A DNA stretch of 64,000 nucleotides from an uncultured Candidatus Saccharibacteria bacterium. GTDB lineage: Bacteria; Patescibacteriota; Doudnabacteria; UBA920. Positions 1 through 64,000 of this stretch are shown here, piece by piece. Position 1 is the stretch's first letter, and the number at the start of each line of letters is the position of its first letter. The translations under genes and the position numbers were made by a program. Location: positions 29,692 through 93,691 of the forward strand of contig CAZACP010000003.1 in the NCBI GenBank assembly GCA_964483665.1, in the 5' to 3' direction. Below the pieces are notes generated by a model. That model did no database searches and was not told the origin of the DNA. It saw only the letters and a list, made by a program, of their open reading frames with translations.

Positions 1-700
1 TTTCCGTATCAGAGTCGATTTTGATATCTTTAACCCCGGCGGGGGTATTTAAATTTTTTATTTGAATGAGTTGTTCTACACTATTTACACCGTCACCCAA
101 AACTTGCGGGCTGTCTCCCCTTAAGACACCACATAATTCAAAATTTATTACAGTTGCCCTAAAAACCGGACCGAACAGCTGTTCTTCCACAACTACCCAA
201 AAACACAATTTTTTAGAAATCTCATACGCGCTTTGTAAGTCAGAAATCGATGAAACATAAGTTGTACTATGTCTGCCCCTTGATCCAGCTCTGGGCTTTA
301 CAATAACAGGTTTTTCAATATGTTGAAAAATTTTTTTTGCCTCAAAAAAATTCCATACCGACCCGCCTTTGGGTACCGGCAACCCGGCTTTAACAAATTT
401 CTTTTTAAGAATGGCTTTGTCATCCATTGCATCTAAAGCGGCTCGGTCTATATTTTTTGGCCTCGGTAAACCACTAAATATTAGTGGGTAGTGGGTAGTG
501 GGTAGTGGGTAGCCAGCAACATATGTATCGAAAGGTTTGCCAAATAGTAATAATTCTTTCATTTTTATTCCCCGCTTTTGGGCTTCTTCCCACAAAACTT
601 TAGCTCGGCTAACTTTGCACTTATTTATGTCTTCATTAAACGTAACTATATGCAAAAACGCAGCGAGCTTAGTTAAGGGCAAAGAAAAATTCGGCAGGCT
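1..700 (-). CDS. ATP-grasp family ligase (RimK/D-Ala-D-Ala-ligase-like), 3' end truncated by window edge; start uncertain
   Basis: Reverse-strand translation is open from the stop at 881-883 to position 1. It contains ...KVLWEEAQKRGIKMKELLLFGKPFDTYVAGYPLPTTHYPLIFSGLPRPKNIDRAALDAMDDKAILKKKFVKAGLPVPKGGSVWNFFEAKKIFQHIEKPVIVKPRAGSRGRHSTTYV... (DK..K central-domain start and a K-P..GS.G motif typical of ATP-grasp). The only in-frame ATG is at 562, but 106 more codons are open upstream, so a TTG/GTG start near 650-860 is likely. It is not in the ORF track because it runs off the edge. Confidence 0.5.
482..512. repeat. Heptanucleotide tandem repeat (TAGTGGG)x4 inside the ATP-grasp coding sequence (encodes YPLPTTHYPL)
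   Basis: Direct reading of ttagtgggtagtgggtagtgggtagtgggtag. Confidence 0.9.
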
Positions 701-845
701 GGCAAAAGAAAAAATTTTTATCAACCTTTGCCTAATAGGCGAAAGTAAAATATTCAAACTTTCAAAAAACCAATAAATAAAATGCGGTACAGGGTTATTG
801 CCGCAATACTGGCAGTTTAGTTTAGCTGATTTATTTTTTAGAGGG

Positions 846-1328
846 TTACTTTCCACGCTTAAAATAATACGTTCCGGCAGTCAACACTAAAATCAAAAAT
901 AAAACAAAAATTGTGTTTTTTATTAGACCATTTTCAGTACTAAAAATACGGGAAGGCGAAAACCAATCCAAGTTATTTTTTTTTATCAATTCTCCACCGT
1001 CTTTTCCTGACAGGATTTTCTCATCTTCTAATTTTTCAGAATTATCGTCTGTTTGAGCTGAAGTTTCGGTTTTAAAATTAATATTTTTGCTAACATTCGG
1101 GAAACTGTCTTCAGGAATTGGCTGTAGCGGTTCAAGTTTAGGCACAGTTCCTTGAATAGCTGTAACAACTGGGGTAGGCAAAAAAACAAAAAAAACAAAA
1201 AAAATTGTTATAAAATATTTCATAATTTTAATGACAAAAACGACATATATTATCAAAAAAAGTCTTTTAACTGCCCCGAATGCACTGAAGGATCCCTCTT
1301 TCCCTTCGCTCACTCGGTAAGGCAACAA
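846..1328 (-). CDS. Hypothetical membrane protein (one strongly hydrophobic segment, Lys/Asn-rich tail)
   Basis: ORF track 160 aa; hydrophobic stretch LFLIIYVVFVIKIMKYFITIFFVFFVFL; true start may be internal. Confidence 0.4.
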   Translation of the reverse strand: MLPYRVSEGKEGSFSAFGAVKRLFLIIYVVFVIKIMKYFITIFFVFFVFLPTPVVTAIQGTVPKLEPLQPIPEDSFPNVSKNINFKTETSAQTDDNSEKLEDEKILSGKDGGELIKKNNLDWFSPSRIFSTENGLIKNTIFVLFLILVLTAGTYYFKRGK

Positions 1329-1367: not shown

Positions 1368-2804
1368 TTAATCGCTATTCCAACTAATTGTTTGATAACC
1401 TTCGGCCGAGAGAGGAAAAGAAGGTGGCGGGCCAAAAAGCAAATTGCCGTCATAAGTTGTGTTGGTGTTGCAATAACCAGAAGTACAATTACCACTTCCG
1501 TTTACCCAGCTCCACGTCCAAACCCCAAAGCTTGAGACCGCTCCAAAAATTGTAATCTGAGTTTTTAGGTTGCCTGAAAAATCATACCTCTGTATACTAC
1601 CATTTTGCGCTATCATTGCCGCGTTAATTTCTAAATTATCTGGCGCGAAATAACTTACCAAAACGTCTTTTTGTCCTATTAACCCCAACACATGGTTTCC
1701 GTTTTTGGCGGTATAAACAATATTATTTGGAATAACAATACTAGGCGCGCTTGCTGCATTGTATGGTAATTTTGCAGCTGCAACCAAAACCTTTCCGTTT
1801 ACAATACCTTCAACCCAAGTCTTGTCCTCAATGTAGATCAAACCATTTGTGGGCATTTGGTAATTCTGGGTTCCGGCTAAGCTTGGATTACCATCTAATT
1901 TTGTTCGTGCCCCTCCGCCTGTTCCATAATCTATATCTTCATTGTGCGCTTGCCCATTTACATCATACCCTGTTGCGTGACTTCTTAAAGAATTTACTCT
2001 ATATATTGAAATTGTTGAGTCATTGTTAAATACCAAAGAATATCCTTGGGCACTTGAGGGTGGCAAATAAATTCCTGCAGACTGTGCCCCGCTTTTTATT
2101 GCAGCTAAATCAGAAGTTATTGAAGAAAAATCCACATTAGGAACCGGGAAATTCCAAAAGGCTCTAGTCGAAATAGGCGCCAAACCCCAAATACCTGGTT
2201 TACTTTGCGCCGGGCTGCACCCATGGTAAGTTTGGCAAGTATAGGTTGTTTTTGAAGAAGTTATTAATGCATTACCAGTACCATCAAAATGAATACCGCC
2301 ATTCGCGTGCATTTCCCCATTAATACTTTCAGTATCGCCTACCCATACATCCGTATTCGTTAAAAAGGCGTATTTAGCCAAAGAAGGTACCCCATAGCGC
2401 ACGGTAATTGTTCTTTTTGTATTTGGATTTTGTAAAGTGTAACCTGTAGATTTTATAGTTACAATTGTAGAGCCAACACTTGGAGGTGTTATTTGCAGGC
2501 TATATTCTCCTATTTTTTTATTGGTGTCTTTGTCTATAAAATCGTGGATATAAGGTCCCGGGCTGGTTGAAGTAGCATTGCCGTCGTAATAATCTGTCGC
2601 GAAATGCGCTAATCTCCACTGATAATAATTTGCTCCTGCTTCCGCTATCTGAAAGGCTTGCTCGCGGGCTACAGTATTTTTAACTAGTCTTACTTGAACC
2701 GATGCGTAAGACAAAACCGCCAGCATAACCATAGAAAAAATAAAGATTACAATAACAGTGTAAATTAATGTACTTCCGGAGTTAAATTGATCACGATTGA
2801 CCAT
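1368..2804 (-). CDS. Type IV pilus minor pilin / PilX-like assembly protein (N-terminal TM helix plus AFQIAEAGANYY PilX_N-like motif), large secreted C-terminal domain
   Basis: N-terminus MVNRDQFNSGSTLIYTVIVIFIFSMVMLAVLSYASVQVRLVKNTVAREQAFQIAEAGANYY resembles the PilX N-terminal domain; it is first of three co-oriented pilin-like genes. Confidence 0.6.
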   Translation of the reverse strand: MVNRDQFNSGSTLIYTVIVIFIFSMVMLAVLSYASVQVRLVKNTVAREQAFQIAEAGANYYQWRLAHFATDYYDGNATSTSPGPYIHDFIDKDTNKKIGEYSLQITPPSVGSTIVTIKSTGYTLQNPNTKRTITVRYGVPSLAKYAFLTNTDVWVGDTESINGEMHANGGIHFDGTGNALITSSKTTYTCQTYHGCSPAQSKPGIWGLAPISTRAFWNFPVPNVDFSSITSDLAAIKSGAQSAGIYLPPSSAQGYSLVFNNDSTISIYRVNSLRSHATGYDVNGQAHNEDIDYGTGGGARTKLDGNPSLAGTQNYQMPTNGLIYIEDKTWVEGIVNGKVLVAAAKLPYNAASAPSIVIPNNIVYTAKNGNHVLGLIGQKDVLVSYFAPDNLEINAAMIAQNGSIQRYDFSGNLKTQITIFGAVSSFGVWTWSWVNGSGNCTSGYCNTNTTYDGNLLFGPPPSFPLSAEGYQTISWNSD

Positions 2805-2829
2805 AATTGACCATAATTGACCATAATTG
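2799..2829. repeat. Tandem 10-mer (GACCATAATT)x3 overlapping the PilX-like start; on the coding strand this reads ATGGTCAATT x3, creating three nested ATG codons
   Basis: Direct reading gaccataattgaccataattgaccataattg; the annotated ATG is at 2802-2804. Confidence 0.9.
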
Positions 2830-2881
2830 TTTTTAAATTTTGATCAATTTTACTTAATTTTAATTAATTTTGCTCAATTTC

Positions 2882-3529
2882 TTAGTCTCCCAAATTTGTT
2901 TTTAAATTCCTTATAGTTCCACCGGCTGTTAAAGTAAAAAAATTGTTATTTAAGACACCTGCTTTATTATATACTTTTAAATTTATTTTCAAATATTTAA
3001 CCGCAGTTACACTTACGGGCTGGGCAAGCGAAGTTTGGGTAGATGATCCCACATAGCTGTTATCATAATAATAAAACAGGGGCGTAGTACTGGAATTGGC
3101 AATGTCGTTTTGAACCAAGACTGAAACTTCGGTGCTTGTAGGGTAACTAGTCCCATTGTACTCAACAACCCCCTTGTACAATTTACCATTTTGTAAAAAA
3201 TACCTAATTCTTTCAATAGACGAATCCTTGTCGGCATTACTGTAATATGCCACTTGTTGGTCGCCAGCAATTTCTAGCGCATAGGCGCCATTGGCACCTG
3301 TTTGGGCATTTCTCAGCTCGTTAATAATTCCAAAAGCCACTTTACGCGCTTGGTCTGTATCTGCTAACAAATCTGACTGCTTGCGGCTACCCGTAACAAT
3401 TTGAGAAACCAAAGCAACTAAGCCTAACATAATTATCGCGAATGCAAAAATTGAAACCACGGTTTCAATTAGGGTAAACCCGTGACTGAAATTTGAAATT
3501 TGAAATTTGAAATTTGAAATTTTTCTCAT
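2882..3529 (-). CDS. Type IV pilin-like / pseudopilin with prepilin cleavage-methylation motif (GFTLIE)
   Basis: MRKISNFKFQISNFSHGFTLIETVVSIFAFAIIMLGLVALV: classic G/FTLIE N-methylation site followed by a hydrophobic helix. Confidence 0.8.
   Translation of the reverse strand: MRKISNFKFQISNFSHGFTLIETVVSIFAFAIIMLGLVALVSQIVTGSRKQSDLLADTDQARKVAFGIINELRNAQTGANGAYALEIAGDQQVAYYSNADKDSSIERIRYFLQNGKLYKGVVEYNGTSYPTSTEVSVLVQNDIANSSTTPLFYYYDNSYVGSSTQTSLAQPVSVTAVKYLKINLKVYNKAGVLNNNFFTLTAGGTIRNLKTNLGD
3487..3521. repeat. Heptanucleotide tandem repeat (TGAAATT)x5, i.e. AAATTTC x5 on the coding strand, in the leader peptide of the pilin gene (codons 3-14)
   Basis: Direct reading tgaaatttgaaatttgaaatttgaaatttgaaatt immediately 3' of the start codon at 3527-3529 (minus strand); it encodes ISNFKFQISNF. 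Confidence 0.9.
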
Positions 3530-5337
3530 GGGCTCATTAAAATTTCAAGGCTCTGGTTCCCATTAATATTCAAAGTATTAATTGTCTGGGTCTGGTACCC
3601 GGGGATACTAACCTCCAAAGAATGATTACCGGCATAAAGTTCACCAAACCAAACTTGCCCTGGGGTAAAACATCCGGAAATGTAATTAATATTTACCGAA
3701 GTGAATACCGGCGTAATATATGGGTCAGAACTAGACAAATACGCCTTGTATCTTACATAACGATTATTGTCTAGCGCCGAAGTAATATTGCTTCCAGGAA
3801 CTGTATAATAAGTAGACGAAGTTCCGTCAGGCCCCACATAATTCCAAGTTGCGTTATCATTATTAGCCGCAAGCTGAAAGCTTAAAGATGTTGAAGAGCT
3901 CTGGGAAGGAGGATCCCAAGTTAAAGTAGTAAAATTTGAAAGCCCTGTTCCTGTATCAAAAGTAGAACTTTCAAGCCACCCGCTTGAAACAAACAGCCCG
4001 ACGTCCTGCCTTAATCTGACACCAGTCGGAACTGAAGCAATATCAATATTTGCGTCGTCCTGAAAATACTTGTCGGGACTGGAAGTTGACCAATTCGCTT
4101 GTCCGCTTCCGCTACTCCAATCTATCTGCGTCCATACACTGCCTGAGGTATAACCGTAATAATCTTCAGAAGGAGGGCCAGTTTTCTGTAAATGAGCAAA
4201 AACATTTTCCAAAGCCGCTCCTGTCGCAGCATCTTTAACAACTAAAAGTAAACTATTGGAAGTAGAGTTTAAACCTAAAATTGTAGTAAACGTTTGAGTG
4301 GTATTTGGCATAACATCAATTTTCTGTATGGGCGAAGTACCAGCCACAACCCAAGACTGTCCGGTTAAAAGCGTCGGAGTATAAGAATCCCATTCCAAAC
4401 TATTTAACGCAATAAGCCCGCCCGATGAACTAAAATTTTCATTAAATTTTAAAACATCCGGGCTGGTTCCAATTAACTTAGCCCCACGAATATTAATATT
4501 AACACCATTCACATTTTGACACGATGTATTTAAAGTTTTAATATTAAGCGTCGAAATGAGATCGATGGAGAAACTTATCGTGGTAACTTGGCCGTCAATT
4601 ATGGTAGTGTCCGGCTTAATTGGGTTTGGATTTGAAACCGTTGGCAGATAGGTCATATCAGAAGAATAACCAGCCTTGGTAACAACAATATGGTAGCCGT
4701 TAACTTTTGCCGGAAGACCAACTTCAATCCATTGACCGGCTGAGTCGCTTGTTCGGTCTAAAATAATAGTCGGAGCCGTGGTCGTTGATTCTATATGAAT
4801 ACTGGCACCCGACACCGGCTGACCGCTTGAGTTAAAAACTTTTATTAAAAGAGCTCCCGCATTTAATGTTCCTTCCAAGCCCTTTGGTACAACATTAGTA
4901 GAAAAAGTTGAAACCTGGTTGGTAGTAGTATTTAAAATTGTCATTTTTACCTGCTTATAGTCTGCGGGTTCAGCGTCTGCCGGAGCCAGACCGTCGGCGG
5001 GGTCGTCTATGTATGTTACTTCGTAATAAATTTTGTAGGTATAACTTTCAATTCTTGTTGTAATAGCGTTTGTTAAGTCAACCAAAGGCCCGTTGGGGTT
5101 GCCCACAACAGTTCCCACTTGACTGTAGGGCATATTTTTTACAATTTCCATATAGTTATCCGCTAAAGAAGCCAGAATGGTTTTTTCCCTTGCTACCTTA
5201 ACTGTTTTGGTTAAAGCTGCGTACGAGCCAATAACCCCAAGCGCAATAATTGCAAAAATCGCCAAACTCATAAGAGCCTCGAGCAGAGTAAACCCGGAAC
5301 GATTAACAATTAACGATTTACATTTAACCTTTTGCAT
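3526..5337 (-). CDS. Large type IV pilin-like protein (prepilin motif GFTLLE, 603 aa)
   Basis: MQKVKCKSLIVNRSGFTLLEALMSLAIFAIIALGVIGSYAAL N-terminus; overlaps the next gene by 4 nt (operon). Confidence 0.75.
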   Translation of the reverse strand: MQKVKCKSLIVNRSGFTLLEALMSLAIFAIIALGVIGSYAALTKTVKVAREKTILASLADNYMEIVKNMPYSQVGTVVGNPNGPLVDLTNAITTRIESYTYKIYYEVTYIDDPADGLAPADAEPADYKQVKMTILNTTTNQVSTFSTNVVPKGLEGTLNAGALLIKVFNSSGQPVSGASIHIESTTTAPTIILDRTSDSAGQWIEVGLPAKVNGYHIVVTKAGYSSDMTYLPTVSNPNPIKPDTTIIDGQVTTISFSIDLISTLNIKTLNTSCQNVNGVNINIRGAKLIGTSPDVLKFNENFSSSGGLIALNSLEWDSYTPTLLTGQSWVVAGTSPIQKIDVMPNTTQTFTTILGLNSTSNSLLLVVKDAATGAALENVFAHLQKTGPPSEDYYGYTSGSVWTQIDWSSGSGQANWSTSSPDKYFQDDANIDIASVPTGVRLRQDVGLFVSSGWLESSTFDTGTGLSNFTTLTWDPPSQSSSTSLSFQLAANNDNATWNYVGPDGTSSTYYTVPGSNITSALDNNRYVRYKAYLSSSDPYITPVFTSVNINYISGCFTPGQVWFGELYAGNHSLEVSIPGYQTQTINTLNINGNQSLEILMSP

Positions 5338-5415: not shown

Positions 5416-6651
5416 TTATACCACAATTTCGGGCTCTTTGTCAGTCTGAAGCAAAATAGCTTTTTTTGAAAGCATTCGGGTAATTACAAAAAAAGACAAG
5501 CCGGAAATTAAAACCGTCAAGCTGTTCCATTTTAAAGCAAACAACAACCCGTAGCTGTCTGAAAATTTACCTACCAAAGCAGGACCTAACGTATCGCCTA
5601 TCAGGTGAATAATTAATACGTACAAAGCAAACGCCGAAGCCCTTAAATTTTTTGGCACAACTTCATGCATAACCGCCGTAACCGGACCATGATACACACT
5701 AAAAAAAACTGTGCCTAAAAAAAAGTAAATTATAAATAGAAATCGATTTTCTTCCGTAATTCCCAAATACATAAATGGAGCAGCTAAAGTCAAACTTAAA
5801 GCAACAGTCAGGCTTCGGCCATACGCAAACTTTTTGTGCAAATAGTCAGCAACCATACTCCCTAAAACCACGCCTATAATTCCGGCAAACATTAGAGTAG
5901 AACCTAAAACCAAACCGGCATCGCGCAAATTCATACCCTTGTAGCGGGAAATGAATTCCACGCCCCAGGTTATGTAAGCACCTGAAGCAAAAGTAGCGAA
6001 AATTCCGCTAACTATAATCCACCAAAAAGCTTTATTGCTTTTTAGGTCTAGCAGCTTAATTTTATGGTCATGTTGTAAAATTCTTACGTCTTTAAGCCTA
6101 TAAGCAGCCCACGAAAGCAGTAACCCCGCCGGAGAGACAATAAAAAAAGCTAAGCGCCAGTTATTAAAATAATAGGCTATAAGTCCTCCTAATATTGCGC
6201 CCAAAGTACCGCCCACTATCATGGCCGCATTAAACCAGCCTTGTGCGCGAGACCAATAGCTTTCAGGCACATTGTCGGAAATCATGGCAGTGGCTGCAGG
6301 GGCGTAAGCCGCCTCGCCTACCCCCACCGCGCCCCGAACAAATAATAACTGATAAAACTTGGAAGTCAACCCGGTTGCAAAACTCATTACGCTCCAAAAA
6401 CCTACCCCCGCGGCAATTATTACTTTTCGGCTCATACGGTCAGCTAATATTCCTAAAGGTAAACTAGCTAAAGAATGTACTAGCATAAACACCGAGGCTA
6501 AAAGACCTAACTGGAAATCTGAAATTCCAAATTCCGCTTTAATGTGCCCGAACAACGGAAAAACTACCTGCCTGTCCAGGTAGTTTATTAAGTTAATTAA
6601 AGACAAAACCCACAAAATCCGCTTTTGGCCGGAGGAAAGCTTATTTAACAT
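5416..6651 (-). CDS. MFS transporter
   Basis: 411 aa polytopic protein; MFS motif A-like GILADRMSRKVII between TM2 and TM3; about 12 hydrophobic segments. Confidence 0.8.
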   Translation of the reverse strand: MLNKLSSGQKRILWVLSLINLINYLDRQVVFPLFGHIKAEFGISDFQLGLLASVFMLVHSLASLPLGILADRMSRKVIIAAGVGFWSVMSFATGLTSKFYQLLFVRGAVGVGEAAYAPAATAMISDNVPESYWSRAQGWFNAAMIVGGTLGAILGGLIAYYFNNWRLAFFIVSPAGLLLSWAAYRLKDVRILQHDHKIKLLDLKSNKAFWWIIVSGIFATFASGAYITWGVEFISRYKGMNLRDAGLVLGSTLMFAGIIGVVLGSMVADYLHKKFAYGRSLTVALSLTLAAPFMYLGITEENRFLFIIYFFLGTVFFSVYHGPVTAVMHEVVPKNLRASAFALYVLIIHLIGDTLGPALVGKFSDSYGLLFALKWNSLTVLISGLSFFVITRMLSKKAILLQTDKEPEIVV

Positions 6652-6899: not shown

Positions 6900-6977
6900 A
6901 AATTTATTAATTAATTTTTTAAATTTTTCTCAATCTTATAATATTCTTGTCATTCTTTTAAATCTTGGTCAATCTTG

Positions 6978-8831
6978 TCAATTCCTTCTTACCCCTCCCC
7001 ACTCAACTACAGTAAAACCTTTTCTTTCAGGGGTGCGGATATTAAACCCTTGTACGGCTATTGGTTTTTCTAACGGCACAAAGTCCATTAAAATTCTAAT
7101 TACTGTGTCAGGCTTGGGGCTTACTTCCAAAGGCGCAAGTGCGTCCATAGTGCTATTGCCCATAAAAGTTACAAAATAGTACGGACTGCCTTGCATTTTA
7201 GGTTCCCAATATTCCATAAAATCAGCCGACTCCTTGGTGTTCAAACCGAGCTTAGCTAGCTTTTCTAACAAAAAATTGTGCGCATCTGCCTGGGCTACCA
7301 CAAAACCGCGGTCAGGGGTTTGGTACATTCCTCCCCGACCCTCCCAAAACAAATACGGATAAACTTTACCGTCCGCTAAATTAGTTATGTTGCTAACTGG
7401 GTCTGAAATTACATTCCAGCCTTGGTTATAAGCCGGCTCTGTAAAAGTAAAGCCGCCAACCGGACTTACCTTAACTGAAATTTTTTGCGTAGTTTCCGGA
7501 TACAAATATATTACCGGCTTGCCGCATTCAGCCATTGGCTGATACTTTGTTGATTTAAAACGAATGAATTTACCAAACTGGTCCTTCCAAAAGAATATTG
7601 GCCTACTGGCAATAAAGTTTTGATACGAGATCTTACTTTCACCTTCTGGTACATACATAGTCTCATATATATATGTAAGTTCGGGGCTATCTGAATTTTT
7701 ATAACCATAAACAGGCTGCCCGCCAATACTAGTAACGCCAATTTGTTTTAAATCCTCAAATTTTACTTTCGCAACATCCCGAAAGTTATTTGAACCGCAT
7801 CCGCCAATTGCCTGATACATATACTCTTGAGAATTAACTTTAGAATCAGACCAAGTCACGTATGGCACTTTCTGGTCAACAAATGGTATGTCTAACTGAT
7901 ACGTTCTAAGAGAACTGTCCGGGCCTTTTACATAAAAGCCATGTCTTTTTCCGTAACTATAAACACCCTCTAAATCTTCCTCTATCAGGGTGTCTGTATA
8001 GACATCGCCAACTTTCTCGTCAGTAAATACCTTTACTAAATTATCTTTACAAAAAAAATCAACACCGTTTTGGAAAAACCCCATTGACTTAACATAGCTA
8101 AACTTTGCATCCGGATTGCTTAAAATAAGCTGTTCAGGAAATTCTAAATCAGGCAACTCAAAATCATTGTCAACCACTAGCTTAGTTAGAAAAATATTAC
8201 TGTCAGGTTTATCGGGCAATGCATTTGAATATTTAGACAAATAGTAGTATTTTCCGTCCTTGCTAATAATCCTATACCGTTCGCCAACACTAGGTCCGTC
8301 CGGTGTTATCTGGCTTACAATAAAATCGCCCCCTGCGTACTTACCTTCTTTTATATGCCCGACTACGTAATTTACATCATAATACTGAGCCGTATAAACT
8401 CCTGAGACTTGATCCAGTTTTGCAAAAATTTTAAAATTTTCATTCTTTTTTGGCTCAATCCACTCAACCATTTTAGACCTACTTGTCACAATTTCTCCAC
8501 GATCTTTGCATTCCTGTGAGCCGTAAGCGTCTAGGTACGAAGTATCTGGTGTTGTTGGAGTTCCTGACATATCTGAAGTTTCAGGCCACGAGCTGCTATT
8601 AGCATTCTGTGAATTAATGTTTGACCCAGGCAAAGGCGGGACTGGCAAAATCAAATATTTATTTCTAATTTCCAAATAACCTAAAACCCCGCCAATTAAA
8701 ACCACAACCGCGACTATGCCGGTAATTGTCCAAACTTTTTTGGCCGGATAATGTTTTTGTGTGGGGGTAATTTGGGGAGCCGGAACCTGAGAATTTTGTT
8801 CGTCCATAGAATAGTTGATAGTTTGTAGCAA
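6978..8831 (-). CDS. Hypothetical membrane-anchored protein (N-terminal TM, 617 aa extracytoplasmic domain)
   Basis: TM segment WTITGIVAVVVLIGGVLGYL; no motif recognised. Confidence 0.55.
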   Translation of the reverse strand: MLQTINYSMDEQNSQVPAPQITPTQKHYPAKKVWTITGIVAVVVLIGGVLGYLEIRNKYLILPVPPLPGSNINSQNANSSSWPETSDMSGTPTTPDTSYLDAYGSQECKDRGEIVTSRSKMVEWIEPKKNENFKIFAKLDQVSGVYTAQYYDVNYVVGHIKEGKYAGGDFIVSQITPDGPSVGERYRIISKDGKYYYLSKYSNALPDKPDSNIFLTKLVVDNDFELPDLEFPEQLILSNPDAKFSYVKSMGFFQNGVDFFCKDNLVKVFTDEKVGDVYTDTLIEEDLEGVYSYGKRHGFYVKGPDSSLRTYQLDIPFVDQKVPYVTWSDSKVNSQEYMYQAIGGCGSNNFRDVAKVKFEDLKQIGVTSIGGQPVYGYKNSDSPELTYIYETMYVPEGESKISYQNFIASRPIFFWKDQFGKFIRFKSTKYQPMAECGKPVIYLYPETTQKISVKVSPVGGFTFTEPAYNQGWNVISDPVSNITNLADGKVYPYLFWEGRGGMYQTPDRGFVVAQADAHNFLLEKLAKLGLNTKESADFMEYWEPKMQGSPYYFVTFMGNSTMDALAPLEVSPKPDTVIRILMDFVPLEKPIAVQGFNIRTPERKGFTVVEWGGVRRN

Positions 8832-13870: not shown

Positions 13871-14350
13871 TTATATTTTTTCCTTGCCTTCTATTAAACT
13901 TTCAATTTTTTTAATATATTCTTCCGGCAAACGGTTTTCGTAGGCCGCGGCAATAACCCGCCTAAAATACTCCTGCCTATACTGCATTCCCCCGCAGTTA
14001 CCCACGGGTTCAATATAAACCTGGGCTTTATATTTTATGTTATGGTCGTCAAAAACCGTAACTTCTTTTCGGTCAAACACAGTCGGATAACCTTCAAAAT
14101 CGTCGAGCATACCAAGGCCGTCTTCGTCCACGCTGTAAAGTATGCCAAAAATCTCAGCATTTTCTTGCGGGTCAATATTTAAAAAGCCCCGTTTGTCCAA
14201 ACAGTTACCATAGCCGCTAAGCCGCGCCCGACCCAAAAACTGGCAATGCCAGCCGCAAATGCGGCGCATATGTTCCAGGCTCATATTGCTGCCGTAGGCA
14301 AAGTAATACATAAAGAAAGTATAAAGTATTAAGTATAATGTATCAAGCAA
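13871..14350 (-). CDS. Gamma-glutamylcyclotransferase (AIG2/GGCT-like) family protein
   Basis: YYFAYGSNM motif (hallmark YFAYGSNL); the start is probably the internal Met at about 14311. Confidence 0.8.
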   Translation of the reverse strand: MLDTLYLILYTFFMYYFAYGSNMSLEHMRRICGWHCQFLGRARLSGYGNCLDKRGFLNIDPQENAEIFGILYSVDEDGLGMLDDFEGYPTVFDRKEVTVFDDHNIKYKAQVYIEPVGNCGGMQYRQEYFRRVIAAAYENRLPEEYIKKIESLIEGKEKI

Positions 14351-14404
14351 AAAATTATAAGGTATTCAGCCTTATACTTAATACATAATACCTTATACCT
14401 GCGA

Positions 14405-21759: not shown

Positions 21760-21788
21760 TTGACAAAAAATGCAAAATATGATACAAT
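21760..21788 (+). promoter_or_regulatory. Near-consensus sigma70 promoter (TTGACA, 17 nt, TACAAT) for the S8 peptidase gene
   Basis: ttgacaaaaaatgcaaaatatgatacaat; AGGAGG Shine-Dalgarno at 21805-21810; ATG at 21820. Confidence 0.6.
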
Positions 21789-21819
21789 ATACAAACAGTT
21801 CCGAAGGAGGAACCTAACT

Positions 21820-23940
21820 ATGCGTTTTGCAACGCTTCTTTTTGTCTTTTCTTGCGTACTTGTTAGCGCGCAAGAACGCTTTTCAACTCGTGCCCTGACC
21901 TCACAGGGCTACATAACCCGGGAGTATTGGGCGGGCGAGATAATCGCAAAGCCCAAAGGCTACGCCGGCGTCTCGGCCAAAACCGAAACCCGCTCCGCTC
22001 TCGCTGAAGCCGTAGTTGATGCTTTGGGCTACGCGTACATCCCCCACACCGGAGATGTCGCATCACTCACTGCCCGCGCTACCGCAATGTCAGCAAACCC
22101 AGACTTCGAGTCGGTTTCGCTGTCGCCGGTAGCCAAAGCAGACCAAGCGCCTCAGCCTGTTAATGACCCAGCCTTTTGGCTGCAGTGGGGTCTTGGCAAT
22201 TCCCTGCCCGCTGGCTCTTCGTGGAAGCCAAGCACCAAGAGGTTTGACAACCTCTACATCGGATCGTTTGACACTGGCGCCTGCTTCGGTCACGAGGACT
22301 TTGACTGGAGTAGAAATGAGGTCAAACTCAACTACAACGCCATACTCGCGCCAAAATCACCCGAGGCCATACCTTTTGACGACAACGGCCATGGGTGCGC
22401 AACTACCGGCATCGTCGCAGCCAAGTCCAACAACCGATTAGGTATTTCGGGTATGGCGGACAACGTCAAGACCGCATACATAAAGGTTCTCGATGCTAAG
22501 GGCAACGGCAAGGTCAAGGACATTGTTTCCGGCATTCTCGAATACGCAACCCGCGTCAAGAATATGCCGGCAGGGTCTAGATTCCTTGCCATAATGGCTT
22601 TCGGCTTCGAAGAACAGGTGCCGCCCATCGAGGAGGCCGTCCAAATCGCCCGCAAAGCAGGGATCATGTTCTTTGCTTCCGCGGGAAACGAGGGTTGGGA
22701 TCTAAGCCGCTTTAAGAAAACACCGGCAACAACTGACGGCGTAATCTCGGTAGCGGCCTGCACTCCCCAAAACGAGCTTGTAGTTAAGACGTTCTGGGCT
22801 TCCAACTACGGGAATCCCGTACTCGGGTGTGCCGCGGGAGTAGAAGTCTGGACAACGGTTCCAAAGCCAACAGAAAGCAGCAGCTACGAACTAGCAGACC
22901 CTTCCGGCTATAAAATGCTTGAGGGAACGTCGTTCGCTGTCTCTTTCTACGCCGGTGCTGCTGCCCAACTCATAAACGAAAAACCGGATATATCCGAAGA
23001 GGAAATCCGGATTCGGCTTATGAACGGCAACCGTAAGGTTGCGCCCGCTACGATTTGGAAACGGTCTTATCAAGGTCCGGATCTGTTCGTTTCAGGCAGC
23101 AGCCTCTACTTACCAACTGCCCTGGCGGAAGATAACCAAGCTCCGGCGCAACCGGTTTTGGAAATCACGCCCGGCCACAGCTCGGCTCGCATAAGGCTTT
23201 CAGACACGGAAAGGCCGTTCGGCATTCGCTGCGCCTATGGCAACATAGGCGACCAGCAAATACTCGAACTGGTGCCGTACTTTGGCAACGAGGATATTAT
23301 TCTCAAAAACCAAGACGGTACCCCGCTTCCTTCCTCCACCGACCTTCAAGTCGCGTGCAAAATGGTAGACGGCGCCGGCAACTGGTCACCTCTTTCCCGC
23401 GGGGCTTCGTTCCACACCAAGGAAAGCAAAAGTGAAGCGGTTTCGCTCAACCTGTTCAACGCCAGTCTGGGTCCCTTGGGCGACATAATTGCCCAGGCTG
23501 ACCCAAACACCAGGCCGTTATGGTCTCCTAAGGAGTTCCCTCTGCTGGGACAAATGACCTGGTACGCCGGAACACAAGCGTTGAACTACCGGGTCGGCGA
23601 CAACGACTCGGTACTGGTGTCCGAACCCATCGCCCTACCCGAGGGCTCAGTGTCAATTAATCTGCGACAGTTTGTGCAGATGATTGGCACCCGCGCCCAA
23701 GGAATGCACTTTGACAGCTCAGAACTGTCAGTGCTGTGGCAAGAGGACGGCCAAGAACGGCAAAAAGTCCTTCGGCAGATAATGCCGAACTCCAAAGAGT
23801 TCGGGCTAGAAGCCTTTCAACTCGACGTCACCGAATTCGCGGGCAAGACCGTCCGCCTCCAATTCCGCCTGTTTACCAACGGCTCCTCCGTTGGCATAGG
23901 CTGGATTGTCGGGGCCGTGGAGGTACGTAGCGACAAGTAG
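21820..23940 (+). CDS. Secreted subtilisin-like serine peptidase (S8 family), in a GC-rich island
   Basis: Signal peptide MRFATLLFVFSCVLVSAQE; catalytic triad motifs GSFDTGACFGHEDF (Asp), NGHGCATTGIVAA (His), GTSFAVSFYAGAAAQL (Ser). The ORF track start at 21760 lacks a Shine-Dalgarno, so 21820 is preferred. Confidence 0.85.
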   Translation: MRFATLLFVFSCVLVSAQERFSTRALTSQGYITREYWAGEIIAKPKGYAGVSAKTETRSALAEAVVDALGYAYIPHTGDVASLTARATAMSANPDFESVSLSPVAKADQAPQPVNDPAFWLQWGLGNSLPAGSSWKPSTKRFDNLYIGSFDTGACFGHEDFDWSRNEVKLNYNAILAPKSPEAIPFDDNGHGCATTGIVAAKSNNRLGISGMADNVKTAYIKVLDAKGNGKVKDIVSGILEYATRVKNMPAGSRFLAIMAFGFEEQVPPIEEAVQIARKAGIMFFASAGNEGWDLSRFKKTPATTDGVISVAACTPQNELVVKTFWASNYGNPVLGCAAGVEVWTTVPKPTESSSYELADPSGYKMLEGTSFAVSFYAGAAAQLINEKPDISEEEIRIRLMNGNRKVAPATIWKRSYQGPDLFVSGSSLYLPTALAEDNQAPAQPVLEITPGHSSARIRLSDTERPFGIRCAYGNIGDQQILELVPYFGNEDIILKNQDGTPLPSSTDLQVACKMVDGAGNWSPLSRGASFHTKESKSEAVSLNLFNASLGPLGDIIAQADPNTRPLWSPKEFPLLGQMTWYAGTQALNYRVGDNDSVLVSEPIALPEGSVSINLRQFVQMIGTRAQGMHFDSSELSVLWQEDGQERQKVLRQIMPNSKEFGLEAFQLDVTEFAGKTVRLQFRLFTNGSSVGIGWIVGAVEVRSDK

Positions 23941-24048
23941 TCAACTTGTCGGCTAGTTCCTCCTTCGGCAACGAAAAAGCAGCATAGTTACCAAACGCAA
24001 AAACGCCGGAGAGCTATAAACTCACCGGCGTTTTCATTTTGCTTATTT

Positions 24049-27415: not shown

Positions 27416-28079
27416 TAACCCACTCCTTTCAAAGAAAATGACCACGATGCACAATAACACTCGTGGATAGCTTAAATTTTGAATAATTTCTACTCTTATG
27501 TCAATCCCCCTGCTGCTTGACAGGCAAAAGTAAAAGGCGCTGGGGAAACGAAAATAGAACTCGTTCCCAGCGCCCGGGTTTGCGGTTGCGAATTCGCGAG
27601 CCGTAGATGTTAGAAACACCGACGACCCACGTTTGAAAGAAACCATAACAGCCGCCACAGACGTACTTTCAGCGGTGTATGCATTATCCCCTCCCCGGCC
27701 GGCAGAATCTAAACAATGTAATGCTCCAACTCAGCCGGAACCGAATTCGCTTTTTGCGCTTTACAAGCGCATAAACGTCATTGAAAAAATCAATCGCCCA
27801 CCCGCGTGGATAGCTCCCCACTACAAACAAAAAATCTCTCACTGTACTATCTTTTTCCATGGGACCTCCCATTCCCAACAAGTTTAGCAAAATACATTAG
27901 ACTTGTCTAAAAATTCATTAATTTGACTAAAAATTATTTTTTCAGTAAACTTCGTATATCTTTCGCACATGCTCAGTATGTGCGTAGTAGTACGTTTCTC
28001 CGCAAGGAGAACCTCTAACGTACTTCTGGTCCGTTGCCCCAGCCATAGAGGTGGCTGGACTTTCAACAAGGAGTGGAAA

Positions 28080-28772
28080 ATGTCAGATTTTCGCAAGCTG
28101 TTACTTGCGTTCGCTGCAGTGACCCTCTTCGCAGGGATTGCCAGTGCCGGCCCCGCGCCGGCGCTCAACCACACCGCCCAACCCTTTTCGGTGCGGGATG
28201 ATGCCACCAGCGCTATCGCGCCAGACATCATTTCCATCGATGTTAAGATGAATCAGTTCTTCTCGGTTTGCGGCGCAGGTCTCCAGGCGCCGGCGTGGTT
28301 GAATGAATCGGGGTTGTCAGTGATGGACAACGCCCAGTCGCTGAATATCGGTGCTCCGGCGCTTCCGCCGGCACCGAATATCGCCGCTCTCGAATCCGGT
28401 ACCGCTGTCGCTTCCGGCAACGCCCCGATTATCGCGAACACAGGCCAGACCACGTTGTCTGCGCCTTCCGCCCAGGCTACCGGCACTACTGCCGCTACGC
28501 CCGCCAACCTGCTGAACTCGAATTCCGCTAAGAATACGGCTAACCTACTGAGCCAAACGACGCTGGGTTCGAATATCCTGAACGGCACAGCCAACACCAA
28601 CAACCAATTCGCGGTTGTCGACGGTAACCCTGCAGCCGACTCTTCTGTTCTTTTCAACGCTGACGCACCAGACGCCTCTACGAGCGCTGGTCAGACTGCC
28701 GTTGCAACCCATCTCGCTGCCCCTGCACAGGTCGCGAGAACAGCTCCAACGCATGCCGGCTCCGCCGGCTAA
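28080..28772 (+). CDS. Secreted low-complexity Ala/Asn/Thr/Ser-rich protein (GC-rich island)
   Basis: AAGGAG Shine-Dalgarno, then MSDFRKLLLAFAAVTLFAGIASA signal peptide; the ORF track start at 27969 is upstream and in frame. Confidence 0.5.
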   Translation: MSDFRKLLLAFAAVTLFAGIASAGPAPALNHTAQPFSVRDDATSAIAPDIISIDVKMNQFFSVCGAGLQAPAWLNESGLSVMDNAQSLNIGAPALPPAPNIAALESGTAVASGNAPIIANTGQTTLSAPSAQATGTTAATPANLLNSNSAKNTANLLSQTTLGSNILNGTANTNNQFAVVDGNPAADSSVLFNADAPDASTSAGQTAVATHLAAPAQVARTAPTHAGSAG

Positions 28773-28794
28773 CAGCAGCGAAAAGCCCCGCAGG

Positions 28795-28830
28795 GCGCCT
28801 TCCTCACGGACGGCGCCCTCGGTTTTTTTT
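28795..28830 (+). terminator. Rho-independent terminator
   Basis: cagggcgccttcctcacggacggcgccctcggtttttttt. Confidence 0.75.
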
Positions 28831-28961
28831 ATTTTACTATTTATATATCTGTGTTCTCTGTGTAAAAAAAACTGTGTATATTTGACAAAATATTTATTCT
28901 GCTTTAGTATTTATTTTACGTAGCCCCCAAGGGGGCAACTATAGACACAAGGAGTGTATGT

Positions 28962-29075
28962 ATGAAGCGTTTAAAGATGGCCGGTGCCGCGCGCGCCCAC
29001 AAGGATGTCACTCAGGTTCATGGCGTTCTCGAGGACATTCTCGAAGCGAACGCGGGCACGAAGTCCGACGTCTAG
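28962..29075 (+). CDS. Possible 37-aa small protein MKRLKMAGAARAHKDVTQVHGVLEDILEANAGTKSDV
   Basis: AAGGAG 7 nt upstream of the ATG; followed by the hairpin gggctcccgtagggagccc; below the ORF-track size cutoff. Confidence 0.3.
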   Translation: MKRLKMAGAARAHKDVTQVHGVLEDILEANAGTKSDV

Positions 29076-29392
29076 TTCATCCTGGCTCGGCGCCGCAAGG
29101 CGTCAGAGGGGCTCCCGTAGGGAGCCCTTCAATCATACGTTCATATTATACAGCTCTCATACCCAGATGAGAGGCGGCGGGGTAACACCCGCCGTGACCA
29201 GCTAGCAGCATCCCCTCGCACAAACCCGGAACGAAAGTTCTGCCCAAGCACCCTTACCAGGGCTAAGCAGAACCTTCGTTTCCGGGTTCGTTTTTTACCT
29301 AAAAAATTTTAAAGGCTCAATCGGAGTGAGCCTTTAAAATAGTAAAAACGCCCAAAGCAAAACTGTGCTTTAGATTTTAAAAAACCTAAGAC

Positions 29393-29560
29393 TTACAGGC
29401 TGACTGAAAGGCTTAAAGCTTTACCTATATAGTACGGCCAAATTACCAGCGCCAAAACGCCCTGCCAAAAACTTAAACCCAAAAACCCAATGCTAAACAG
29501 CCAGCCCATAAACCACAAGCTGCCGGTAAAAGTATGATTTTCAATTTTAATTTTTTCCAT
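29393..29560 (-). CDS. Possible 55-aa small membrane protein
   Basis: The ATG lies 1 nt after the stop of the upstream gene. MEKIKIENHTFTGSLWFMGWLFSIGFLGLSFWQGVLALVIWPYYIGKALSLSVSL has two hydrophobic helices, and a terminator hairpin (29308-29335) follows on the minus strand. Confidence 0.35.
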   Translation of the reverse strand: MEKIKIENHTFTGSLWFMGWLFSIGFLGLSFWQGVLALVIWPYYIGKALSLSVSL

Positions 29561-29561
29561 A

Positions 29562-29798
29562 TTACAAATTTACTTCTTTTTTCTTGCTAAACCCAAAAAT
29601 ATAAACTATTTCTAAGAGCGCAAAAGTGTTTAAAATAAGCAAAGCCACAAACCAGCCTTTCTGGCTGTTTTGGGCCGCTTTGTAAAGCGCCACGCCTTTC
29701 CAAGGCAATGTCCACAAAACCAAGACTATAAGCATCCAGGGCTTAACCAAACCCAAGAACTCCCCGGGATTTAAAAAATAATTCATTTTTCTCACCAC
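29562..29798 (-). CDS. Small 2-TM membrane protein (DUF5652-like)
   Basis: MVRKMNYFLNPGEFLGLVKPWMLIVLVLWTLPWKGVALYKAAQNSQKGWFVALLILNTFALLEIVYIF. Confidence 0.5.
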   Translation of the reverse strand: MVRKMNYFLNPGEFLGLVKPWMLIVLVLWTLPWKGVALYKAAQNSQKGWFVALLILNTFALLEIVYIFGFSKKKEVNL

Positions 29799-29815
29799 CT
29801 TTCTTTAAGAAAAGT

Positions 29816-30625
29816 TTAATTTGGAACAGACATATTTTTCACGCCACTCGCGAAAATTTGGCTTTTGCCTGAAATATGCTTACCTTTAACCTTAACCTGC
29901 TGACCCACCTTAAGTTCAGCGGCAGAAATTTTGTTGCCGTTTTTATTTTGAAATGCGGCACCGGAAATATCTACCCCATAAATCACTCCCCCATTAGCCA
30001 CCACGCTTATTCCTCCCGGCATAGTCATAGAAACTGTCCCGCTAATTTCTATATTTACCAGTCGAACGGTTACCAGCACCTGTTTGGCAAAAATATTGGT
30101 TTTGTCCCTTTCCCATAAACCCTTTACAGAAACACTAACTCCGGGCTCAAGATCCGAAAGACGGGAGCTTGTGTTATTTTTTTTATAAATTGTAAAAACA
30201 TCACCTTGAACATTTAGCAAACCATAACTTGCGGTTTGCAGCTTAAAGCCCAAACCGTTTAAACTAACGCTATCTACTTTTCCGCTAAATGTCCCGCTAT
30301 GCGGGTACAGAGACATGTTTCTAACTAACTCCGCGTTAATGCTGTTGTCCGGCCAAACCAAACCTTTTATTTCTATTTTATCGCCTACTAAAATTTCGCC
30401 AAACTTCATTTCCGCGCCATATTTTTTTATTAGCTTTGCCTGCCAGGTTTGAGCAGTATAATTAGCCGCACTTGAAGTTTTTACAACTAAAATATTTTGA
30501 TAGGCTTGTGTTATTATGCCGCTTACAGTCTTTTGTTTCGGGGCAATTTCTGCCGCAAAACAAAGACCGGGTATTATAAAACCAATTAGGGTTAATAACG
30601 CGGGCATTTTTAAAATTTTTTTCAT
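29816..30625 (-). CDS. Secreted hypothetical protein (signal peptide)
   Basis: MKKILKMPALLTLIGFIIPGLCFAAE signal peptide; repeated VxVKG beta-rich segments. Confidence 0.55.
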   Translation of the reverse strand: MKKILKMPALLTLIGFIIPGLCFAAEIAPKQKTVSGIITQAYQNILVVKTSSAANYTAQTWQAKLIKKYGAEMKFGEILVGDKIEIKGLVWPDNSINAELVRNMSLYPHSGTFSGKVDSVSLNGLGFKLQTASYGLLNVQGDVFTIYKKNNTSSRLSDLEPGVSVSVKGLWERDKTNIFAKQVLVTVRLVNIEISGTVSMTMPGGISVVANGGVIYGVDISGAAFQNKNGNKISAAELKVGQQVKVKGKHISGKSQIFASGVKNMSVPN

Positions 30626-41955: not shown

Positions 41956-42508
41956 CACTTTACCCTAATATTTCTATTAGGCGTGGACTATATCATTCCG
42001 CCAGAGGCGGACGAGGGGCTTCCCAATCCCACATAGTGGGATAAGTACTCTCTTTCGAGATAGTCTCTGAACCTTCAATGACTTTTCGTCAAAGCTTGGC
42101 TGCTGATTGCCATATCCTTATAAGGATTTAGGGTTCCAGCAATTCACCTCGTTTTTCACTTCCCAATTGCTTGAGAAGGCTGCAATAGACCGGCATGAAT
42201 TTCCTTATGACAGTTGGAACAAATAAGTACGCACTTATTTAGTTCTGCTAAAGTTTTTTGCCAGGACCTTGTTAGGCCATTGGCACCAAGTCCAAAACCT
42301 TTGGTTTTGGGGTCAAGATGATGAAACTCTAGGGCACCGGCGCAACGGTTATATCCACAAAATTGGCATTTGCCACCTTTGTGGGCTATTGCCATTTCTT
42401 TAATCTTTTTGCGCCGTTTGTCTACTGCCTTTTTAAGGTATTCTGCGCGGTCGGAATATTTCCTTTTATCAGGCATAAATTTATGTTTACTGATAAAGGG
42501 TAGTGTTC
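41956..42508 (-). mobile_element. Group I intron (conserved P, Q, R, S elements) with embedded HNH homing-endonuclease ORF
   Basis: In RNA sense: P GUGAAUUGCUGGAACCC, Q GGCAAUCAGCAGCC, R GGUUCAGAGACUAUC, S AUGAUAUAGUCCACG, P9 hairpin CCUAAUAGAAAUAUUAGG, terminal G. Confidence 0.75.
42156..42476 (-). CDS. HNH endonuclease (intron-encoded)
   Basis: CQFCGYNRCAGALEFHHLDPKTKGF...NGLTRSWQKTLAELNKCVLICSNCHKEIHAG: the HNH His-Me finger with two CxxC pairs. Confidence 0.85.
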   Translation of the reverse strand: MPDKRKYSDRAEYLKKAVDKRRKKIKEMAIAHKGGKCQFCGYNRCAGALEFHHLDPKTKGFGLGANGLTRSWQKTLAELNKCVLICSNCHKEIHAGLLQPSQAIGK

Positions 42509-46225: not shown

Positions 46226-46304
46226 ACTAATTGCAGATTGTAAATTTTAGATTGCAGATTATCTGCAATAAATCTAAAATCAAAAATCTGAAATCTAAAA
46301 TTCT

Positions 46305-47408: not shown

Positions 47409-47454
47409 AAACAAATGACAAAAATGAACAAAATTGACATAAATGACAAAAGTT

Positions 47455-57899: not shown

Positions 57900-58108
57900 C
57901 CTTGGAAGCCAAACGCACGCGAGGGAGTTAGAGAGCAGCACACTCTTCTAACTCCCCTTTCTCCAGCTCGTGATTGTAAAATCATTGGCTGAAGATTGTA
58001 ACCGAACTAGCGGTCATACTAGGAAGCTGGTCTGTCTCGCCCAGTATAAAAAAGGCAACCTGCCATACCACAGACAGTGGTGCAGGAAACTCCTAGGAGG
58101 GGTTATGA
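57882..58108. repeat. 227-bp perfect direct repeat, copy 1 (hairpin-hairpin-conserved element-Shine-Dalgarno-ATGA)
   Basis: Identical by eye to 58528-58754. Confidence 0.85.
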
Positions 58109-58512
58109 TTGTTTTGATTGAATTAACTAAGTCAACGCGGGAACACCCCGCGGGGAGCATACTGAAAATTTGGGGGCCCTTTGCCTCGGAGGAGGAGGTA
58201 AAAGAAAAAGAGCCTATAAGAAAAGGCTCAGATTTTGTTATTTCAAACCTCACTGGTTCACAAACCGGTGTGGGGGAGATATACCTCCTCCTGTTGTTGG
58301 GAAACTACGACAGGGGGATAGGAGGAGATTCATGGGCCGAATGCCCTAGAATGTGGGGACCCTTTGCCTCGGAGGAGGAGGCGGAAAAAATAATAGCGGA
58401 AGAAAAGGAACTCGAAAAAGGTTTCTTTTCCATGGGGGACAAATGGAACCCCCAATGTACTCCCGAGTTTCGTATTTTCTCAGGGGGGATTACACCCCCG
58501 AAGGACATGTAA
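58105..58512 (+). CDS. Hypothetical protein with internal duplication (WGPFASEEE x2)
   Basis: AGGAGGGGTT-ATG; 135 aa; the ORF track's longer version starts at a GTG inside the repeat. Confidence 0.5.
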   Translation: MIVLIELTKSTREHPAGSILKIWGPFASEEEVKEKEPIRKGSDFVISNLTGSQTGVGEIYLLLLLGNYDRGIGGDSWAECPRMWGPFASEEEAEKIIAEEKELEKGFFSMGDKWNPQCTPEFRIFSGGITPPKDM

Positions 58513-58527
58513 CAATGTCCTGCCGCT

Positions 58528-58754
58528 GGCTTCCAAGCCAAGTAGCCTTGGAAGCCAAACGCACGCGAGGGAGTTAGAGAGCAGCACACTCTTCTAACTC
58601 CCCTTTCTCCAGCTCGTGATTGTAAAATCATTGGCTGAAGATTGTAACCGAACTAGCGGTCATACTAGGAAGCTGGTCTGTCTCGCCCAGTATAAAAAAG
58701 GCAACCTGCCATACCACAGACAGTGGTGCAGGAAACTCCTAGGAGGGGTTATGA
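58528..58754. repeat. 227-bp perfect direct repeat, copy 2
   Basis: See copy 1. Confidence 0.85.
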
Positions 58755-63647: not shown

Positions 63648-63656
63648 CACGGTTTG

Positions 63657-63990: not shown

Positions 63991-64000
63991 CGCTGATGGG

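Follow-up and report, generated by a model that had tools for sequence, protein, structure and literature searches.

A heptanucleotide tract in the leader of a minor-pilin gene from an uncultured Doudnabacteria genome: a candidate phase-variation switch

Introduction

Bacteria of the candidate phyla radiation (CPR, or Patescibacteria) are thought to need type IV pili to attach to hosts and to take up DNA, and we know of no description of how these pili are varied. The question is raised by a 64-kb stretch of AT-rich DNA (GC content ~40%) from an uncultured Doudnabacteria genome (contig CAZACP010000003.1). We call this whole 64,000-nucleotide stretch the window, and coordinates are those of the window unless another locus is named. 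Directly after its start codon, a minor-pilin gene of the window carries five perfect copies of the 7-nucleotide (nt) unit AAATTTC. Is this tract a device that switches the pilin on and off, or is it a repeat that the genome merely tolerates? We put at about an even chance the reading that the (AAATTTC)x5 tract is a slipped-strand simple-sequence contingency locus of the Neisseria opa/pilC type. It is a credible candidate on/off switch, for which a high and reversible switching rate is presumed.

An earlier note, made from the letters of this DNA alone, had pointed to three short tandem repeats, namely the pilin heptamer, a decamer across the start of the adjacent PilX-like gene and a heptamer in an ATP-grasp gene, and had read all three as contingency architecture. 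Tandem Repeats Finder (TRF) recovers the three arrays where the note had placed them, far beyond chance expectation. As a candidate switch the pilin heptamer is supported, whereas the same reading of the PilX decamer is refuted by the results below.

The pilin tract and its reading frame

The tract lies in a cluster of five co-directional minus-strand genes, which encode a 603-amino-acid (aa) pilin-like protein, a 215-aa minor pilin, a 478-aa PilX_N protein, a small open reading frame (ORF) and a 402-aa ATP-grasp protein. The features that matter first are these:

3487 to 3522, minus strand: perfect (AAATTTC)x5 array in prepilin leader codons 3-14 (TRF, 5.1 copies, 100% match)
2882 to 3529, minus strand: 215-aa minor pilin or pseudopilin, PulJ/PilV-like; leader MRKISNFKFQISNFSHG, then FTLIE
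3526 to 5337, minus strand: 603-aa pilin-like gene, first in the cluster; Pfam N_methyl and CarboxypepD_reg, and a GspI/ComGE-like N-terminus in NCBIfam

The 215-aa product matches Pfam N_methyl (E=1.9e-5, 24.5 bits, above the cut-off of 21.2) and, in NCBIfam, IV_pilin_GFxxxE and a ComGE/PilV-like N-terminus; TIGR02532 scores 17.2 bits against a cut-off of 16.3. It has 358 homologues, named PulJ, PilV or PulG in their sources. A class III prepilin is expected to begin with a short leader whose last residue is Gly, to continue with F/M-T-L-I/L-E and to run on into ~20 hydrophobic residues of helix; the product shows this pattern, with MRKISNFKFQISNFSHG followed by FTLIETVVSIFAFAIIMLGLVALV. In a PDB profile search with this protein, matches were confined to the pilin N-terminal helix (E of at least 0.05), and no solved relative of the globular domain was found.

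On the minus strand the gene begins ATGAGA-A(AAATTTC)x5-AGTCACGGGTTTACC, or, by codon, ATG AGA A(AAATTTC)5 AGT CAC GGG TTT ACC. Since 7 is not a multiple of 3, the gain or loss of a single unit shifts the frame, and there is no alternative start codon between the array and the GFTLIE cleavage motif. The note's claim of a frame shift was borne out when copy number was varied in simulation: the full ORF is read at 2, 5 or 8 units only (ON), and 1, 3, 4, 6, 7 or 9 units give peptides of 10-30 aa (OFF). As expected of a contingency locus, the array is uninterrupted and far beyond chance, and it sits in a 5' coding position where a change of unit number abolishes the ORF. It also sits in a surface gene, one of three adjacent pilin-like genes.

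Ribosomal frameshifting was considered as another use of the tract. A -1 shift at A_AAU_UUC (of the X_XXY_YYZ form) was rejected, because the shifted frames stop within a few codons and the orthologous units are not slippery.

Copy-number variation within the species

A pilin protein identical to that of the window is encoded by eighteen contigs of JGI, ENA and Logan assemblies. The contigs examined match the window at 99.3-100% identity and thus represent one widely sampled species. Loci were also gathered through neighboring genes and through a 90% protein cluster, which removes the selection for five units. The 90% cluster of the pilin includes P0124 (192 aa), for which the gene caller resorted to an internal GTG as start, so that the product is devoid of both the leader and the GFTLIE motif. 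Its contig (L011; ENA ERZ27283041, MEGAHIT k141) carries (AAATTTC)x4, which leads to a TAA 17 codons after the ATG. Across ~30 same-species loci and ~12.6 kb, only two indels were found, and both are in L011: the 7-nt unit of the pilin and an A9/A10 run in the small ORF of the cluster.

846 to 1328, minus strand: small ORF between the PilX-like and ATP-grasp genes, with a signal-peptide-like N-terminus
976 to 984, minus strand: A9 homopolymer (T9 on the plus strand) in the small ORF 1328..846; A10 in L011, which frameshifts the small ORF

The tract also leaves a mark on short-read assemblies. Logan k=31 contigs of SRR6837555, SRR6837549 and SRR23702482 all end at ...ATGAGAA(AAATTTC)x4A, and three further Logan contigs begin inside the array. 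When the assembly graph was simulated (de Bruijn, k=31), five units alone gave no branch, whereas a mixture of four and five units gave exactly the observed contig end. The ends at this branch point are indirect evidence for both alleles within samples, from which we infer that the two co-occur.

Could the difference in unit number and the contig breaks be assembly or sequencing artefacts of a short repeat? This is very improbable. Although four units are seen in one contig only, and the right-hand Logan contigs do not start exactly at the predicted branch points, the tract, at 36 nt, fits within a read and within k=141 and is flanked by unique sequence, and five units are recovered alike by SPAdes, MEGAHIT, JGI and Logan assemblies. 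A single allele yields no branch at k=31, the break falls at the identical base in three samples, and the linked single-nucleotide polymorphisms (SNPs) in L011 mark it as a real haplotype.

Within-species variation was sought in ten other array-bearing pilin clusters as well; nine were singletons and the tenth had two members of equal length. A screen of close locus pairs for array differences returned duplicates or pairs with no difference only. Truncated homologues were considered as OFF alleles and rejected, two of them (L192 and L194) having an inverted-repeat insertion in the leader and a third (L193) being a contig that starts in another heptamer array.

The leaders of some relatives differ in other ways. 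In L192 (690-830), L194 (150-260) and L203 (2340-2570), compared with L113, they contain modules of ~100 nt bounded by inverted repeats (ACCCAGCAC...GTGCTGGGT and TCACTTTT...AAAAGTGA) and by duplicated copies of the motif GGGTTTACC (G-F-T). Each module has its own ATG and leader, and two stand in tandem in L203 versus one in L113. To judge from its sequence, the module resembles a small inserting or duplicating element aimed at the codons of the prepilin cleavage site. In L012 (positions 1-225; JGI 3300045384), unrelated sequence is fused to the pilin at residue ~25, giving the 207-aa P0122; either the assembly is chimeric here or the leader has been lost in a rearrangement.

Distribution of period-7 arrays in the lineage

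Arrays were called by TRF and counted at a score of at least 40 against order-3 Markov shuffles, in the window and in 160 orthologous loci (734 kb) from metagenomes and GTDB genomes. Five period-7 arrays were observed in the window against 0.0 expected, and 65 in the orthologous loci against 0.2 expected, a more than 300-fold excess; periods 3 and 6 are nearly absent.

The arrays are concentrated at pilin leaders. Among 118 pilin leaders examined, 40 contain a TRF array, which has period 7, 14 or 21 in 28 of them. Leader-coding windows of the pilin type make up 3.2% of the sequence and hold 25 of the 74 period-7-type arrays (34%; binomial p=3e-19), and arrays whose period is a multiple of three are far less concentrated there (8/65). 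Orthologue arrays usually start 1-7 nt past the ATG of the 215-aa pilin, the ~475-aa PilX-like or the ~600-aa pilin-like gene. In homologue leaders they appear as a 7-residue periodicity, e.g., INHKSKIINHKFQ and IPNSKFQIPNSNR. The 603-aa gene of the window carries a degenerate example:

5298 to 5328, minus strand: imperfect heptamers GTTAAAT GTAAATC GTTAATT GTTAATC within the leader-coding part of the 603-aa gene (TRF, period 7 with 75% match, period 14 with 88%)

Cleaner arrays occupy the same site in orthologues (L112 542-575, L117 500-531, L056 610-636).

The unit itself varies by species, with AAATTTC, AAATTCC, AAATCAC, AAATTAC, AAATCAT, AATTTTC, AGTACTC and others observed, and many orthologue arrays are 100% perfect. 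Species-specific units in perfect arrays indicate continuing homogenization and turnover rather than ancient relics. Arrays nevertheless persist at the same positions across species with only 40-80% protein identity while the unit changes. Palindromic units were tried as the origin of period 7 and ruled out, a 6-nt palindrome being present in a minority of units (AAATTTC, AGTACTN, GACATGT). The earlier proposal of the pilin heptamer as a candidate switch is backed by a natural four-unit allele, by assembly break points and by recurrence across the lineage.

A number of observations weigh against a switch. Among same-species contigs, at least 22 have five units and one (L011) has four. L011 also has extra SNPs and the second frameshift (A10), so four units may mark nothing more than a minor strain whose cluster is decaying. 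With L021, L011 has haplotype SNPs in common and shows no difference over 2.9 kb except at the two repeat tracts, but a Logan contig can mix haplotypes, which makes this comparison only suggestive. An exact look-up among ~15 billion proteins found no in-frame pilin with two or eight units. No copy-number difference was found in the near-identical array-bearing pairs L047/L124 (99.4%) and L056/L057 (99.5%), and every array-bearing orthologue is ON in the assembly consensus. Copy numbers at the pilin tract are low (4-6), and slippage rates may accordingly be modest. Lastly, period 7 also prevails among non-coding arrays, where frame does not matter, which points to a lineage-specific mutational bias independent of the reading frame. 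Unit-length preferences are, however, likewise typical of organisms with recognized contingency loci.

These points lend themselves to another explanation, which is possible but somewhat unlikely: the arrays are tolerated by-products of a lineage-specific slippage or duplication bias that acts wherever sequence is unconstrained, as in cleaved leaders, enzyme loops and intergenic DNA. Switching would then not have been selected for, and the four-unit allele would be a common null mutation, or a pseudogene, of some minor strain. The period-7 dominance outside genes, the almost universal ON consensus, the invariant close pairs and the state of L011 all agree with it. So does the placement of arrays at tolerant sites, i.e., leaders and two variable ATP-grasp loops, and other insertions are also accepted in relatives' pilin leaders. 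Under mere tolerance, however, frame-breaking units should be selected against in coding sequence, yet the leaders favor period-7-type arrays (25/74 versus 8/65). Many arrays right after the ATG are perfect rather than interrupted, and their positions are kept between species while the unit turns over. Furthermore, the pilus cluster covers ~8% of the window length and holds 5 of the 11 window arrays with at least four copies. These features argue against the by-product reading.

Decamer arrays at the start of the PilX-like gene

The second repeat of the earlier note lies downstream of the pilin:

1368 to 2804, minus strand: 478-aa PilX_N-type minor pilin-like gene; Pfam PilX_N, and a ComGG-like N-terminus in NCBIfam
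2785 to 2829, minus strand: (ATGGTCAATT)x3 plus two degenerate units, with three ATGs; 3' arm of a hairpin, spanning the PilX ATG at 2804
2836 to 2880, minus strand: array of (AAAATTGAnC)-type decamers between the pilin and PilX genes; 5' arm of the hairpin, inverted complement of the 2785..2829 array

The PilX_N match of the 478-aa product (E=1.8e-5, 25.0 bits) is just under the cut-off of 25.5. The second array, at 2836-2880, went unmentioned in the earlier note.

The note had taken the first array as a switch with nested ATGs in different frames, which does not hold. The productive start of the 478-aa ORF is the last ATG (2804), which keeps the frame at any copy number; from the ATGs at 2824 and 2814, only 19 and 7 aa are read. 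Because the ATGs lie inside the decamer units, a change in unit number never shifts the productive one, and no frameshift is possible. Moreover, all 28 same-species loci share one decamer copy number, and L112, a different species with 70% identity overall, has it too. Judged by the note's own criterion of uniform repeat number, the PilX decamer is not a phase-variation switch.

What is observed instead is a conserved structure. The stretch 2770-2860 is the most conserved of the cluster, at 93-97% identity to L112 versus 70% overall. The RNA of 2770-2890 (minus strand) folds at -21.7 kcal/mol (z=-2.86; equalled by 2 of 200 shuffles), with the two arrays paired as an imperfect ~35-bp hairpin that buries all three PilX ATGs. 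Four stem pairs are substituted between the window species and L112; all are still paired, one of them by a compensatory change of GC to AU. No Rfam family matched the element at the gathering threshold. The decamer arrays are probably a structured translational or transcriptional control element over the PilX initiation region.

Similar paired arrays, of heptamers with ~4.5 units each, are located upstream of a GGACT-family gene (14316-14400, minus strand) and of an ABC-2 permease gene (46230-46301, plus strand). By eye the members of each pair are mutual inverted complements, and regions centered on one array fold with z=-2.8 and -3.5, respectively. Both pairs lie directly 5' of start codons, the same design as the PilX hairpin, and neither pair varies across 8 other assemblies. 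A long, imperfect AU-rich hairpin that buries initiation codons, as predicted for the decamer element, is also found in RNA thermometers and translational operators. As in start-codon-sequestering hairpins, the sequence of the decamer element is conserved and its substitutions keep the pairing; unlike the known ones, its arms are 10-nt tandem arrays, and it has no Rfam match. Tandem-array hairpins over start codons that are more conserved than the surrounding genes point to an undescribed type of 5' regulatory element.

Might the pilin heptamer likewise be a cis-acting RNA or DNA element, such as an AU-rich unstructured aid to re-initiation, a weak hairpin or a protein-binding array? The conserved structure next to it invites the thought, and z is below -2 for the fold of ~14% of heptamer arrays, most of which are non-coding and occur as inverted pairs. 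A small hairpin is possible in the tract, since AAATTT is self-complementary, and the start codon of the pilin shares bases with the stop codon of the 603-aa gene before it (ATGA), so that the initiation context matters. The sense-strand fold of the tract is, however, not significant (RNA z=-1.25, DNA z=-0.59), on which ground a hairpin-driven function was rejected. Perfect coding arrays in orthologues have z of about -1.8 to +1.7 and mostly non-palindromic units, so structure does not account for them. The pilin leader is the least conserved stretch relative to L112 (37-50% identity versus 70% nucleotide identity overall). The unit changes from species to species, and the tract is absent from L112 and L113, which are the closest relatives; the decamer element behaves in the opposite way. 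We consider a cis-acting role of the heptamer rather improbable.

The array in the ATP-grasp gene

The third repeat lies at the other end of the cluster:

1 to 856, minus strand: 5' part of the 402-aa ATP-grasp gene; the remainder is past the window start (L001 8674-9882)
482 to 512, minus strand: perfect (CTACCCA)x4.4 array (TAGTGGG on the plus strand) in the loop just before the ATP-grasp domain; in frame, encoding GYPLPTTHYPL

The label ATP-grasp, which the earlier note had given, is not supported at Pfam cut-offs: the best match of the full-length product is RimK at E=0.008 (16.2 bits, below the cut-off of 21), and the window-encoded part has no Pfam match. It is confirmed by the NCBIfam cyanophycin-synthetase ATP-grasp domain, which covers residues 139-400 of the 402-aa product at E=1.7e-51.

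The array lies between the conserved motifs FGKPxDxYVA and FSGLPRP. It is perfect and, as the note had said, in frame, and going by its sequence it could frameshift the enzyme. A copy-number variant did not come to light: four units of CTACCCA are found in 14 of 14 loci with both flanks. An exact look-up among the same ~15 billion proteins found no ATP-grasp protein with one or seven units. The members of the ATP-grasp protein cluster comprise the 402-aa call, a later-start call (358 aa) and one 133-aa fragment, with no change of tract length, and two contigs that end at or in the tract are only suggestive. Unrelated 7- or 14-nt arrays do occur in the equivalent loop of L037, L044, L117, L131 and L095, and a second ATP-grasp loop carries arrays in L134 and L033.

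Proposed switching and its consequences

A contingency locus at the pilin tract would work as follows. During replication, the nascent and template strands would misalign by one 7-nt unit, and the unit gained or lost would break the frame between the GFTLIE prepilin domain and its sole start codon, which the ATGA overlap would couple translationally to the upstream gene. The minor pilin would be made with 2, 5 or 8 units; any other number would yield a peptide of 10-30 residues and no pilin. As the array is within the leader, which is cut off by prepilin peptidase, the mature pilin would not be affected. The population would then always contain subpopulations without this minor pilin, in which the pilus tip complex is probably absent or altered. 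For an episymbiont, this could hedge attachment and DNA uptake against escape from pilus-specific phages or hosts.

We further suggest, tentatively and at somewhat less than an even chance, that Doudnabacteria and related Patescibacteria possess a lineage-wide heptanucleotide contingency system, long maintained while its units turn over, that independently toggles each gene of the minor-pilin (pilus-tip) operon and the adjacent ATP-grasp enzyme. If true, the host-attachment and DNA-uptake organelle would be subject to combinatorial variation, and no earlier phase-variation system would have been described for the CPR. A leader frameshift switch, if real, would mean that reduced-genome episymbionts share a bet-hedging strategy of host-adapted pathogens. 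It would also account for the assembly fragmentation at these genes and for N-terminally truncated pilin calls. The repeat copy number of the pilin would then offer a simple marker, countable in reads, for ON/OFF dynamics in metagenomic time series.

Other features of the window

Several further repeats were noted. A 9-mer array, (AAATGACAA)x4.2, lies at 47413-47451 between convergent genes; Logan contigs from five samples (L200, L201, L202) end at 47442 and two others read through, and the array may be another polymorphic site. At 6913-6982 (minus strand), upstream of a 78-aa ORF, (TTGACAAGA)x4 has the consensus -35 hexamer TTGACA in every unit, and similar AATTGACAA arrays lie upstream of relatives' pilin genes, e.g., in L032. 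A promoter scan of the cluster was uninformative (12 sites versus 8.2 expected). Within 63700-64000, GC-rich palindromes (CCCCTCCCCTCAAGGGAGGGG; TCATTCCCGCGAAAGCGGGAATCC; GGATCCCGGCTCGGAGGCCGGGATGAC) stand on either side of an (AAATTTT)x4.7 array and look like repetitive extragenic palindromic (REP) or terminator-type elements.

A complete group I catalytic intron was identified at 41964-42208 (minus strand; Rfam, 64.9 bits, E=3.4e-14). In the whole 64 kb, ARAGORN found no tRNA genes, and no other Rfam family, including rRNA, was matched. L006 and L026 are near-identical to the window except for a dense cluster of substitutions at ~6376-6650, the 5' part of a major facilitator superfamily transporter gene (6651..5416), which suggests a recombination tract or an allele replacement at the transporter N-terminus. 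The GC content is 47-55% at 22001-24000, 28001-30000 and 58001-64000 versus ~38-40% elsewhere; one of these stretches contains a 726-aa ORF (21760..23940), and they may be of foreign origin.

Comparison with known phase-variable systems

Full-text searches for phase variation, contingency loci, slipped-strand mispairing or simple sequence repeats (SSRs) in CPR, Patescibacteria or Saccharibacteria yielded nothing relevant in the library searched. One CPR repeat paper concerns an in-frame 9-mer PTD repeat, a different phenomenon. The earlier statement that such loci are undescribed for CPR pilus genes agrees with these empty or irrelevant matches, and the comparison is therefore with pathogens.

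Heptanucleotide SSRs are an accepted phase-variable or rheostat class, and each species has a preferred unit length. Haemophilus influenzae has ATCTTTC heptanucleotide repeats upstream of hmw1A and hmw2A and tetranucleotide repeats in lic1, which has several ATGs. The lic1 logic, in which ATGs upstream of the repeat open different frames, was considered for the PilX decamer and ruled out, because there the ATGs form part of the units and the last one keeps its frame throughout. The HMW arrangement resembles the non-coding heptamer arrays upstream of other genes in the window; unlike the pilin tract, it is promoter-proximal, grades expression and has 12-30 copies.

In Neisseria, pilC1 and pilC2 carry a poly-G tract in the signal-peptide coding region of a pilus-associated adhesin. 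As at the pilin tract, a repeat in the leader switches an accessory or tip protein of the pilus, and the expected phenotype is altered piliation or adhesion. The pilC repeat is a homopolymer rather than a heptamer, and PilC is not pilin-like and does not have a GFTLIE N-terminus.

Neisseria opa genes have CTCTT pentamer repeats in the signal-peptide coding region, in ~7-28 copies. The pilin tract differs from them in its unit of 7 rather than 5 nt, in its 4-6 copies, in its class III leader, which is cut by prepilin peptidase and is not a Sec signal peptide, and in its uncultured CPR host. It resembles them in its place, within the N-terminal leader that is cut from a surface protein, and in a unit length that three does not divide. 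In both, translation passes through the three frames of the unit one after another, and the copy number sets the frame, ON or OFF, with the mature protein unaffected.

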